Positions 2,196-22,840 of a DNA stretch of 64,000 nucleotides are shown piece after piece. Location: assembly GCF_003334785.1 (NCBI RefSeq), contig NZ_QOWV01000001.1; one strand, written 5' to 3'. Both the position numbers and the translations under genes were made by a program. Every line of letters starts with the position of its first letter. The first letter of the stretch is position 1. The notes under the pieces are model-generated. The model had not been told where the DNA came from, did not search any database, and was given only the letters and a program-made list of their open reading frames with translations. The stretch is from Escherichia coli. Its GTDB lineage: Bacteria > Pseudomonadota > Gammaproteobacteria > Enterobacterales > Enterobacteriaceae.

Positions 2196-3554
2196 ATGGA
2201 AAAAGACTATTTGAGAATGAGTAGTACTGTATTAGTGAGCTTATTGTTTGGGCTTGCTTTGGTTTTGGTGAATAGTTGGTTTAATCAGCCAGGCGTTGAG
2301 GAAGTTGTTCCACGATCAACCTATCTGATGGTAATGATTGCTTTATTTTTTATCGATACTGTTGCATTTATTTTTATGCAGTTGTATTTCATTTATGACC
2401 GTAGGCAATTTTCAAACTGTGTACTTAGTTTGGCTTTTCTGAGTTGTTTGATTTACTTTGTTATAACCGTCATTATCATTCAGCAAATTATTGAGGAGCG
2501 TTTGACAAGCAGTGTTGTCCAAAATGACATTGCAATCTATTATTTGTTTCGTCAGATGAGTTTGTGCATATTAATATTTCTGGCATTGGTGAATAAAGTT
2601 AGTGAAAACACAAAACAGCGCAATTTATTTTCCAAAAAAATGACTTTGTGCATAAGTTTGTTTTTTGTTTTTGGGGGGCCGATAGTTGCTCACATACTTT
2701 CTAGTCATTATGAGAGCTACAATTTACACATTGCCGAGTTAACCAATGAAAATGGTCAGGTGGTTTGGAAAGCCTCATATGTTACCATAATGATTTTCAT
2801 GTGGTTAACCTTGCTTTCGGTTAATCTATACTTTAATGGTTTACGCTATGATATCTGGAATGGAGTGACGGTGATTGCTTTTTGTGCCGTACTGTACAAT
2901 ATCTCTCTGTTATTTATGAGCAGGTATAGCGTGTCCACTTGGTATATTAGTCGCACTATTGAAGTAGTCAGTAAGTTAACCGTTATGGTAATATTTATGT
3001 GCCATATATTCAGTGCGCTACGAGTAACAAAGAACATTGCACATCGCGATCCCTTAACCAATATATTTAACAGAAATTATTTTTTTAATGAACTGACAGT
3101 TCAATCAGCATCAGCCCAAAAAACGCCTTATTGCGTCATGATTATGGATATCGACCACTTCAAAAAAGTCAACGACACCTGGGGGCATCCGGTTGGCGAT
3201 CAGGTGATAAAAACAGTGGTGAATATCATTGGGAAAAGCATACGACCAGATGACCTTTTAGCGCGCGTCGGCGGCGAAGAGTTTGGCGTCTTGCTGACGG
3301 ACATCGATACTGAACGTGCGAAAGCTTTAGCGGAAAGGATTCGGGAAAATGTTGAGCGTTTAACTGGCGATAATCCTGAATACGCTATACCACAAAAAGT
3401 GACGATTAGTATTGGCGCTGTTGTGACTCAGGAAAATGCGTTAAACCCAAATGAGATCTATCGACTGGCTGATAACGCACTTTACGAGGCGAAAGAGACC
3501 GGGCGTAATAAGGTGGTTGTGAGGGATGTGGTGAATTTTTGTGAGTCACCATAA
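2196..3554 (+). CDS. dgcT: Diguanylate cyclase (GGDEF domain, membrane-anchored) YcdT/DgcT
   Basis: ORF 2124..3554 trimmed to ATG at 2196 (MEKDYLRMSS...), 452 aa; N-terminal hydrophobic segments; GGEEF active-site motif (RVGGEEFGV) near the C-terminus. Confidence 0.9.
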   Translation: MEKDYLRMSSTVLVSLLFGLALVLVNSWFNQPGVEEVVPRSTYLMVMIALFFIDTVAFIFMQLYFIYDRRQFSNCVLSLAFLSCLIYFVITVIIIQQIIEERLTSSVVQNDIAIYYLFRQMSLCILIFLALVNKVSENTKQRNLFSKKMTLCISLFFVFGGPIVAHILSSHYESYNLHIAELTNENGQVVWKASYVTIMIFMWLTLLSVNLYFNGLRYDIWNGVTVIAFCAVLYNISLLFMSRYSVSTWYISRTIEVVSKLTVMVIFMCHIFSALRVTKNIAHRDPLTNIFNRNYFFNELTVQSASAQKTPYCVMIMDIDHFKKVNDTWGHPVGDQVIKTVVNIIGKSIRPDDLLARVGGEEFGVLLTDIDTERAKALAERIRENVERLTGDNPEYAIPQKVTISIGAVVTQENALNPNEIYRLADNALYEAKETGRNKVVVRDVVNFCESP

Positions 3555-3594
3555 AGCGGCATTTTGATCCTACCCACGTAATATGGACACAGGC

Positions 3595-4461
3595 CTAAGC
3601 GAGGTTCTTGTTTTCAAATTGTTCCGGACTGAGGCCGCCACACCAACTGTGCCGCCGCCACCGATTGTAATCACATTCGATATAATTAAACACCGTTGCC
3701 CGCATTATTTCCCGGCTGATAAAGTGTTCTCCATGGATACATTCCACTTTCAGCGAATGAAAGAAGCTTTCCACGCAGGCATTATCGTAGCAGCAACCTT
3801 TTGCGCTCATACTTCCACGCAGATTATGCCGCTTCAGTTGCGCCTGATAATCTGCTGAACAGTACTGGCCTCCACGGTCCGTGTGAACGATAACGTTCCG
3901 GGGCCTCTTACGCCGCCACAGCGCCATCTGCAGGGCATCGCAGGCCAGTTGCGCCGTCATGCGTGGCGACATTGACCAGCCAATAACGGCACGTGACCAC
4001 AGGTCAATGACCACTGCCAGATACAGCCAGCCTTCATCTGTACGTAAGTACGTGATGTCTCCTGCCCACTTCTGGTTCGGGCCACTGGCGTAAAAATCCT
4101 GCTCCAACAGATTTTCTGACACAGGCAGGCCGTGTGCGCGGTAGCTGACCGGGCTGAACTTCCGGGAGGCCTTTGCCCTCAGTCCCTGACGGCGCAGGCT
4201 TGCCGCCACGGTTTTTACGTTAAAGGGGTAACCCTGAGCACGCAGTTCATCCGTCAGGCGTGGGGCACCGTAACGCTGTTTTGACCGGGTAAAAGCCGCG
4301 AGGACAACGCTGTCGCAGTGTTGGCGGAACTGCTGACGCGTGCTTATCCTTGTCCGCCGCTGACACCACGTATACCAGCCGCTGCGGGCCACCCGGAGCA
4401 CGCGGCACATTGCTTTGATGCTGAACTCAGCCTGATGTTTTTCAATAAAGACATACTTCAT
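3595..4461 (-). CDS. insF: IS3 transposase OrfB (InsF), DDE integrase-type catalytic domain
   Basis: 288-aa ORF; start overlaps the orfA stop (ATGA); recognised as IS3 OrfB. Confidence 0.9.
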
Positions 4462-4766
4462 TTCAGGCGCTTCGCGAAGTATGTCGCGGCCTTTTGGAGG
4501 ATAGCCAGCTCTTCATCCCGTTCTGCCAGCTGGCGTTTGAGACGTGCAATCTCGGTAGACATCTCCAGTTCACGTTCAGAAGACGTCTGCTGATTTTGCT
4601 GTTTACTGCGCCAGTTGTAGAGTTGTGATTCATACAGGCTGAGTTCACGGGCTGCGGCAGTAACACCGATGCGTTCAGCAAGCTTCAGGGCTTCACTGCG
4701 AAATTCAGGCGAATGCTGTTTACGGGGTTTTTTACTGGTTGATACTGTTTTTGTCATGTGAGTCAC
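4458..4766 (-). CDS. insE: IS3 transposase OrfA (InsE), helix-turn-helix / leucine-zipper
   Basis: 102-aa ORF ([35 protein letters not shown]...); A-AAA-G slippery motif (ccaaaag on minus strand, plus ~4491-4497) near its 3' end, the established IS3 -1 frameshift site. Confidence 0.9.
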
Positions 4767-4822
4767 CTCTGACTGAGAGTTTACTCACTTAGCCGCGTGT
4801 CCACTATTGCTGGGTAAGATCA

Positions 4823-5166
4823 GTGCCTGGCACACGCGTTTGATGGAAGACGGCGTTCAGGCAATGCGCGATTATCTTGCCGGACTGGATATCGCTTCGC
4901 CAGAGCATCAGGTTCTGATGAACGTAACAGCAAAAAGCGAGGTCGCTCCGTCAATTATCAAAGAAAATCTCTCATTACACTTAACTCATACGGTGAAATG
5001 GACTGAATCTCTCGATACATTTCTGAATATGCCAACCCCGGTAGCTTTCCTTGAAATAAGTAATAAGCCCTATTTGGGGAATATGTTAAATGATTTTGCT
5101 GGCGTGGATCAGCAACGAGTTATGCATTGTCGTAAAGCATTTAGTGATGCAAAGGTATTCAAATGA
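4823..5166 (+). pseudogene. ymdE: ymdE remnant: C-terminal fragment of a FabD-like malonyl-CoA:ACP transacylase paralogue, truncated at the IS3 boundary
   Basis: Reading frame begins exactly at the IS3 right end; translation (…VKWTESLDTFLNMPTPVAFLEISNKPYLGNML…) resembles the C-terminus of FabD (…VQWTKSVEYMAAQGVEHLYEVGPGKVL…). No N-terminal part exists between ycdT and IS3. Confidence 0.6.
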
Positions 5167-6280: not shown

Positions 6281-6903
6281 CCCGGTGTGTGCAATATACG
6301 AAAAAAAAGCCCGTACTTTCGTACGAGCTCTTCTTTAAATATGGCGGTGAGGGGGGGATTGACTCGCTTCGCTCGCCCTGCGGGCAGCCCGCTCACTGCG
6401 TTCACGGTCTGTCCAACTGGCTGTCGCCAGTTGTCGAACCCCGGTCGGGGCTTCTCATCCCCCCGGTGTGTGCAATATACGAAAAAAAAGCCCGTACTTT
6501 CGTACGAGCTCTTCTTTAAATATGGCGGTGAGGGGGGGATTGACTCGCTTCGCTCGCCCTGCGGGCAGCCCGCTCACTGCGTTCACGGTCTGTCCAACTG
6601 GCTGTCGCCAGTTGTCGAACCCCGGTCGGGGCTTCTCATCCCCCCGGTGTGTGCAATATACGAAAAAAAAGCCCGTACTTTCGTACGAGCTCTTCTTTAA
6701 ATATGGCGGTGAGGGGGGGATTGACTCGCTTCGCTCGCCCTGCGGGCAGCCCGCTCACTGCGTTCACGGTCTGTCCAACTGGCTGTCGCCAGTTGTCGAA
6801 CCCCGGTCGGGGCTTCTCATCCCCCCGGTGTGTGCAATATACGAAAAAAAAGCCCGTACTTTCGTACGAGCTCTTCTTTAAATATGGCGGTGAGGGGGGG
6901 ATT
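6281..6903. repeat. Tandem direct repeat array: three perfect 181-bp units (starts 6281, 6462, 6643) plus a fourth partial unit running into the serX 3' end
   Basis: Identical text recurs with 181-bp period; each unit holds a copy of the last 19 nt of serX (plus strand tggcggtgagggggggatt) and the adjacent hairpin plus A/T-run terminator. Confidence 0.95.
6843..6876 (-). terminator. Rho-independent terminator immediately downstream of serX (copied in each repeat unit)
   Basis: On the tRNA strand: short spacer after CCA, hairpin (gctcgtac gaaa gtacgggc), then a run of 8 T. Confidence 0.75.
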
Positions 6904-6972
6904 CGAACCCCCGATACGTTGCCGTATACACACTTTCCAGGCGTGCTCCTTCAGCCACTCGGACACCTCACC
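6885..6972 (-). tRNA. serX: tRNA-Ser (long variable arm, 88 nt, CCA encoded)
   Basis: Reverse complement reads GGTGAGGTGTCCGAGTGGCTGAAGGAGCACGCCTGGAAAGTGTGTATACGGCAACGTATCGGGGGTTCGAATCCCCCCCTCACCGCCA; GGTTCGAATCC T-arm and GGA anticodon loop context. Confidence 0.93.
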
Positions 6973-12516: not shown

Positions 12517-13270
12517 GATGAAACCCCGCTTTTTTTATTGATCGCACACCTGACAGCTGCCTCTAAAATAGAAGCACCAGAAGTACTGACAGATGTTGCA
12601 CTGCTGTGTGTAGTAATAAATCAGCCCTAAATGGGTAAAATATAAAACTAATGGATTACATCTGATTTCAATCTAGCCATTACAAATCTTAAATCAAGTG
12701 TTAAACATGTAACTAAATGTAACTCGTTATATTAAAATGTTAACCTTAAGGTTTTATTAAGTTTAGAAATGATAGAAAAGTTGTACATTTGGTTTTTATT
12801 GCACAATTTTAAAAAATCATACAAATGGTGATAACTTACTAATAATGCATATAAAAAATATTTCGGTGTAGTCCTTTCGTCATGTAAAACGTTCTTGTTT
12901 TTTCTCCACACCTCCGTGGACAATTTTTTACTGCAAAAAGACGAGGTTTGTCACGGCTTGTGCGCAAGACATATCGCAGCAATCAGCGACGGGCAAGAAG
13001 AATGACTGTCTGGTGCTTTTTGATAGCGGAAAGCGGAGATTTAAAAGAAAACAAAATATTTTTTTGCGTAGATAACAGCGTATTTACGTGGGTTTTAATA
13101 CTTTGGTATGAACTAAAAAAGAAAAATACAACGCGCGGGTGAGTTATTAAAAATATTTCCGCAGACATACTTTCCATCGTAACGCAGCGTTAACAAAATA
13201 CAGGTTGCGTTAACAACCAAGTTGAAATGATTTAATTTCTTAAATGTACGACCAGGTCCAGGGTGACAAC
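12517..13270. promoter_or_regulatory. Divergent csgD / csgBAC intergenic control region (754 bp, strongly AT-rich)
   Basis: Long AT-rich gap between divergent start codons; holds the csgD 5'UTR and both promoters (established knowledge). Individual binding sites not mapped here. Confidence 0.85.
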
Positions 13271-22735: not shown

Positions 22736-22840
22736 TGCCTGATGCGCTACGCTTATCAGGCCTACATCGTTCCTGCAATTTATTGATTTTGCAAGACTTT
22801 GTGGGTCGGATAAGGCGTTCACGCCGCATCCGGCAAAAAC
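22736..22840. repeat. REP/BIME-type palindromic units downstream of opgH
   Basis: gcctgatgcgctacgcttatcaggcctac ... cggataaggcgttcacgccgcatccggca: classic REP consensus in opposed orientation. Confidence 0.8.

Follow-up and report, generated by a model that had tools for sequence, protein, structure and literature searches.

The IS3 copy between dgcT and the ymdE remnant

The window, by which we mean the whole 64,000-nucleotide stretch of Escherichia coli DNA that was analysed, carries on its minus strand a complete IS3 element, of the IS3 group of the IS3 family, with its two terminal inverted repeats and the overlapping reading frames insE and insF. Both this copy and IS3D of strain MG1655 lie between dgcT and the ymdE pseudogene, the latter being the remnant of a truncated ACP S-malonyltransferase gene. 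The element is laid out as follows (window coordinates):

3565..4822, minus strand: complete IS3 element, 1258 bp, corresponding to IS3D of E. coli K-12
4784..4822, minus strand: left terminal inverted repeat IRL, 39 nt, starting 5'-TGATC, 72% complementary to 3565-3603
3565..3603, minus strand: right terminal inverted repeat IRR, ending ...GGATCA-3', partner of 4784-4822
4458..4757, minus strand: orfA (insE; insE4 in MG1655), 99 aa by translation, with the DNA-binding domain HTH_Tnp_1 (Pfam PF01527) on residues 12-78
3595..4461, minus strand: orfB (insF; insF4 in MG1655), 288 aa by translation, in the -1 frame, with HTH_21 and rve (DDE) domains by Pfam

The annotated IS3D of MG1655 (NC_000913 1094245-1095502, 'insertion sequence:IS3D') is 100% identical to window positions 3565-4822 over the full 1258 bp, and so is the IS3 of the F plasmid (NC_002483 1-1258); alignment to the IS3 reference, which the original prediction had proposed as a check, thus brought out no differences. 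E. coli records with a match of at least 99% identity number 4414, and plasmid records 797. Imperfect 39-nt inverted repeats bound the 1258-bp unit, its termini read TGATC...GATCA with the TG...CA ends expected of IS3, and all of the defining features tested are present except the flanking 3-bp duplication. When set beside IS3 of E. coli (the K-12 copies IS3A-E and that of plasmid F, with genes insE/insF), the window copy is the same in length, sequence, inverted repeats, orfA/orfB, A_AAG motif, pseudoknot and ATGA overlap, and it differs from the reference copies in its flanks alone, i.e., dgcT and the ymdE pseudogene without a target-site duplication.

A 3-bp (3-5 bp) target-site duplication was sought at both junctions and none was found, the minus strand reading CAC (4825..4823) on one side and AAA (3564..3562) on the other; therefore, the present junctions of the window IS3 are not those of a simple insertion. 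Strain WCHEC020031 carries an identical IS3 with the same right junction, likewise without a duplication, but at the IRL side its ymdE remnant is longer by 185 bp (our locus L082, 1549-1733). The junction differences suggest successive IS-adjacent deletions, and the missing duplication tells of what happened at this locus and does not mark the element as defective.

The surrounding 8 kb differ from MG1655 by four single bases, at window positions 2219, 6438, 6478 and 7161, so the window is K-12-like and not MG1655 itself; it starts near MG1655 coordinate 1,090,681. Two of the four differences fall in RtT-like repeats, three tandem copies with a 181-nt period at 6342-6840 on the minus strand that match Rfam RtT RNA at 46.3 bits (threshold 45) and lie directly downstream of the tRNA-Ser(GGA) gene serX (6885-6972). 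The other Rfam matches above the gathering threshold, at 12572-12663, 22758-22800, 31929-31978, 53713-54049 and 55910-56078 (ES056 sRNA, ES036 (CssrF), PyrC leader, rne 5' UTR element, SraB), are ordinary for that part of the E. coli chromosome.

Reading frames, slip site and the OrfAB fusion

Neither orfA (4757..4458) nor orfB (4461..3595) contains an internal stop, and the orfB ATG overlaps the orfA TGA as ATGA at 4461..4458 on the minus strand, as the original prediction had it on both counts. The orfB frame is open from window position 4512 (IS position 311) down to the orfB stop, which leaves a 55-nt stretch with both frames open, and the -1 frame can accordingly be read from the slip site through orfB, a point that had been named for checking. 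The minus strand from 4500 to 4458 reads CCTCCAAAAGGCCGCGACATACTTCGCGAAGCGCCTGAAATGA. This junction and the sequence beyond it hold the following elements:

4491..4497, minus strand: slip site C_CAA_AAG, in phase with orfA, core tetramer A_AAG at 4494..4491 (PMC5009743, PMC6815119, PMC4066793)
4486..4490, minus strand: 5-nt spacer GCCGC between slip site and pseudoknot, seen in the sequence and in the cassette of PMC4066793
4477..4485, minus strand: 5' arm of stem 1 (S1), GACAUACUU, pairing with 4458..4450
4463..4468, minus strand: 5' arm of stem 2 (S2), GCCUGA, within the S1 loop, pairing with 4435..4430
4458..4461, minus strand: ATGA, the orfB ATG overlapping the orfA TGA, inside the pseudoknot
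4450..4458, minus strand: 3' arm of S1, AAGUAUGUC, its last 8 nt being orfB codons 2-4; nested folding also recovers this helix
4430..4435, minus strand: 3' arm of S2, UCAGGC; in relatives U-A becomes U-G and G-C becomes G-U

The motif CCAAAAG at 4497..4491 is separated from ATGA at 4461..4458 by 29 nt, so the ccaaaag foreseen about 30 nt upstream on the minus strand is indeed in place. The orfA-frame codons here are CUC CAA AAG GCC, and A_AAG is the only in-phase Z_ZZN motif within the 55-nt overlap of the two frames. CCAAAAG is not enriched in the window (nine copies against 11.8 expected by chance), and motif frequency was rejected as evidence for the slip site. The significance of the motif comes instead from its context, i.e., its phase, its position as the sole Z_ZZN in the overlap, its invariant AAAA core and a pseudoknot 5 nt downstream.

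The original prediction had described ccaaaag as the heptamer class used by IS3-family elements for -1 frameshifting to OrfAB. Its reading as a frameshift signal holds, but it is not the canonical heptamer of the family. The canonical X_XXY_YYZ heptamer typical of IS3-family elements is A_AAA_AAG, from which the CCAAAAG of IS3 departs, and the functional motif of IS3 is the tetramer A_AAG or the imperfect heptamer C_CAA_AAG (PMC5009743, PMC6815119, PMC4066793), with C_CA(A) listed as the imperfect first half of a heptamer (PMC5009743). The IS3 signal consists of a slippery A_AAG upstream of a pseudoknot, and frameshifting requires both (PMC6815119). Six tetramers combined with the IS3 pseudoknot spanned 0.26-5.6%, A_AA.G being the most shift-prone (PMC4066793), and frameshifting was measured in reporters carrying a cassette identical to that of the window (PMC4066793, PMC6815119).

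The predicted OrfAB fusion is 387 aa long, with the junction ...EELAILQK| at the point where Lys-tRNA would slip from AAG to AAA. It scores 392.7 bits against the NCBIfam model NF033516 transpos_IS3 (cut-off 160) in one stretch, residues 18-382 aligning with profile positions 1-369 of 369, and because this single match spans the junction, the family profile is collinear through it. Pfam places HTH_Tnp_1 in the OrfA portion and HTH_21 and rve in the OrfB portion, where all three residues of the DDE triad are present (D234, D294 and E330 in OrfAB numbering, with spacings of 60 and 36 residues). The exact 387-aa fusion sequence exists in NCBI as 'IS3-like element IS3 family transposase', and for another strain RefSeq splits this gene into a CDS of two pieces with the note 'programmed frameshift'. 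In most NCBI entries of the 387-aa IS3 transposase, residue 88 is Pro, the annotated join lying one codon early (CUC|CCA AAA GGC; window 4491-4499, minus strand). Slippage on C_CAA_AAG predicts Gln88 (...AILQKGRD...), and versions with Pro88 and with Gln88 both occur in databases; the difference looks like annotation convention, not biology.

The pseudoknot and its conservation

S1 and S2 cannot both be nested, and jointly they make an H-type pseudoknot that begins 5 nt after the slip site, within the 4-10 nt at which a stimulatory structure with covariation support was looked for. The original prediction had suggested a search for a pseudoknot or stem-loop downstream, and it is a pseudoknot, with covariation, that was found; the interval 4458-4500 given there takes in the slip site and ATGA but breaks off within the stimulator, whose far end is at 4430. 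Taken singly, the helices have energies of -8.8 kcal/mol (S1) and -7.5 kcal/mol (S2), and ATGA is found where loop 2 meets the 3' arm of S1. The placement agrees with the IS3 cassette of PMC4066793, written ...CCUCCA-ZZZN-GCCGC- up to 'the start of the PK', and the no-stimulator control of that study was made by removing 'the 3' half of the PK' just past the stop codon; the published pairs were deduced from the construct sequences quoted in the paper.

Nested minimum free energy folding of a 101-nt region was no better than that of shuffled sequences (z = -0.51), its signal being split into mutually exclusive helices. Such an unremarkable result is expected when the true fold is a pseudoknot, and mutually exclusive helices mean that nested folding alone cannot show it. 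S1 does emerge when 48 nt are folded in the nested mode (z = -2.19). At E <= 10, Rfam had no family of frameshift elements matching 3400-4950, not even IS1222_FSE, which is the Rfam family of the IS1222 frameshift element, and its sole match was a chance snoRNA-like one. An alternative pseudoknot with a first stem that begins on the final base of the slip site (GGC-GC/GCGCC, 4491-4486 with 4470-4466) was rejected since it leaves zero spacer and is essentially without covariation, with two pairs broken in 10-16 of 44 sequences.

For the comparison, 80 loci coding for OrfB relatives from other species (52-91% protein identity) were fetched, and 88 nt around the junction were aligned without gaps in 44 distinct sequences having the same stop/start geometry. 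In these relatives 97.7% of S1 cells are paired, and five of the nine pairs vary on both sides. A-U is replaced by G-C at two of them, in 16 and 15 sequences respectively, and a further pair goes from G-C to C-G in 3 sequences. The observed covariation was never attained in 500 shuffles, and pairing fell to 33-47% once the partner columns were offset by 1-3 positions. The swaps alter amino acids in both frames, which argues for selection at the level of RNA and not of protein. S2 is paired in 76.9% of cells in the IS3 register, with the U-A to U-G and G-C to G-U changes listed above, and its changes are mostly one-sided, not true compensatory pairs. About 38 of the 44 preserve the GCCUG(A)/(U)CAGGC complementarity, including more distant relatives in which the 3' arm is displaced by 1-4 nt, and an equivalent helix was not found in about six of the 44.

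The AAAA core of the slip site is invariant in all 44 aligned relatives, and nearly all of them have ATGA or GTGA at the overlap, with ATCA in locus L017. Among 27 close relatives, column identity is 0.97-1.00 in the cassette versus 0.86-0.89 in the flanks, a difference owed in part to the dual coding of the overlap, which favours conservation by itself. Among 65 intact sequences (IS3 and 64 relatives), the slip motif is C_CAA_AAG in 30 and A_AAA_AAG in 32, with neither in three (AAAAAC in two, a degenerate AACAAAG in one). Among loci L027-L063, whose junction lies about 60 nt upstream of the orfB match, the more distant relatives have A_AAA_AAG for C_CAA_AAG and GTGA for ATGA, and their A runs are 6-7 long. 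A third group of relatives (Vibrio, Pseudoalteromonas and others) has an orfA ending in TAG without an overlapping start; the slippery run persists there, but stem 1 is reduced to 6 bp.

A small hairpin, CGCGA/UCGCG (4488..4484 with 4477..4473, minus strand; 6-nt loop, -6.9 kcal/mol), shares bases with both the spacer and the 5' arm of S1. It is about 90% paired in the 44 relatives (90.5%), with C-G to G-C swaps in five sequences. It could be a conserved competitor of S1 that governs in what share of the mRNAs the pseudoknot forms and thereby how often frameshifting and transposition occur, a role that we regard as unlikely; if true, the hairpin would be a conformational switch not described in the literature examined. 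Its conservation may merely reflect the Ala and Phe-Ala codons that it contains.

Origin of OrfAB and standing of the signal

We conclude, with a probability of about 95%, that the window IS3 is a full copy whose OrfAB arises by a ribosomal -1 slip at C_CAA_AAG stimulated by the H-type pseudoknot. For most ribosomes on orfA, translation would end with the UGA at 4460..4458 and yield the 99-aa OrfA. A minority, a few per cent, would stall while the AAG Lys codon of C_CAA_AAG occupies the decoding centre, as the pseudoknot 5 nt downstream blocks the mRNA entrance. Lys-tRNA would then re-pair one base back on AAA, with or without Gln-tRNA moving from CAA to CCA, and translation would go on in the orfB frame to give the 387-aa OrfAB, in which the N-terminal HTH domain is joined to the DDE catalytic domain to make the transposase. 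The ATGA within the pseudoknot may let terminating ribosomes restart and make OrfB alone. Sekine, Eisaki and Ohtsubo reportedly found in 1994 that OrfAB is the active transposase and that OrfA and OrfB modulate it, and OrfB is said in the same work to be made by coupling at AUGA. For the window copy, the analysis itself shows how the signal is laid out, that the slip site is in phase and the -1 frame open, that the fusion is collinear with the profile, that the pseudoknot is conserved and covaries, and that the sequence is identical to the reference; the actual frameshifting at A_AAG and its dependence on the pseudoknot are supported by the literature (PMC4066793, PMC6815119, PMC5009743). Nothing in the analysis contradicts a ribosomal frameshift.

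OrfA and OrfB might be made separately without any recoding, OrfB by termination-reinitiation at ATGA and CCAAAAG being a coincidence. The near-universal ATGA/GTGA overlap in the 44 relatives, the ordinary frequency of CCAAAAG in the window and the coupling of OrfB reportedly described by Sekine et al. in 1994 would all suit such an arrangement, and the coupling route probably coexists with the frameshift. We nevertheless consider the absence of recoding extremely improbable: the IS3 transposase profile is collinear through the junction, the AAAA core does not vary among the 44 relatives and is strengthened to A_AAA_AAG in distant ones, the relatives ending in TAG keep the slippery run and the stem even without an overlapping start, and frameshifting has been measured on the IS3 cassette (PMC4066793, PMC6815119). 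There is equally little to be said for OrfAB stemming from transcriptional slippage, in which RNA polymerase on the A run would produce an mRNA one base longer or shorter. Distant relatives do bear runs of 6-7 A's, but IS3 has four, and an A4 run is too short for efficient transcriptional slippage in E. coli. Transcriptional realignment is used by some IS elements (mentioned in PMC10379815, and the topic of PMC5009743), yet it would give the covarying pseudoknot at the canonical 5-nt spacing no role, and reporters depend on the pseudoknot and on motif identity at the level of tRNA (PMC4066793, PMC6815119).

A different objection accepts the signal as intact and takes the window copy for a stranded, immobile remnant whose frameshift site has no current function. 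The junctions without a 3-bp direct repeat and the adjacent deletion, which left the ymdE remnant 185 bp shorter than in WCHEC020031, could be read in this way; adjacent deletions are, however, a product of IS activity and not of decay. The 39-nt terminal repeats and the coding sequence are identical to those of copies at many chromosomal and plasmid sites, and IS3 transposition was observed in K-12 W3110 (PMC10379815), so that a stranded remnant seems very unlikely. Intact reading frames alone do not imply the ability to transpose, on which the original prediction had relied; that the window IS3 could transpose is a reasonable inference from its intact ends, its DDE triad and its identity with copies at many other sites.

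Besides IS3 itself, the closest systems are other bacterial frameshift signals. IS911 and IS150, also of the IS3 family, resemble IS3 in shifting to -1 in the orfA/orfB overlap to make OrfAB, with a slip on lysine codons and a downstream RNA stimulator. They use the full heptamer A_AAA_AAG, and IS911 has an upstream SD-like element and a stem-loop (PMC4066793, PMC5009743), whereas IS3 uses the tetramer A_AAG (C_CAA_AAG) and a pseudoknot, and we identified no SD-like stimulator in it. In the IS1222 frameshift element and in dnaX, too, a bacterial -1 shift takes place on a lysine motif of the A_AAG type that has a structure on its 3' side (PMC5009743). The dnaX signal differs from that of IS3 in its A_AAA_AAG, SD-like element and simple hairpin.

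The feature in the window is the textbook programmed -1 frameshift signal of IS3, already known and characterised experimentally; it is one of the standard model -1 recoding cassettes and serves as a stimulator in reporter studies. The window holds the reference element, and the finding matters little beyond correct annotation. It provides a coordinate map of the slip site and the pseudoknot, the comparison of 44 relatives independently confirms both stems, and insE and insF are better read as one recoded transposase gene.
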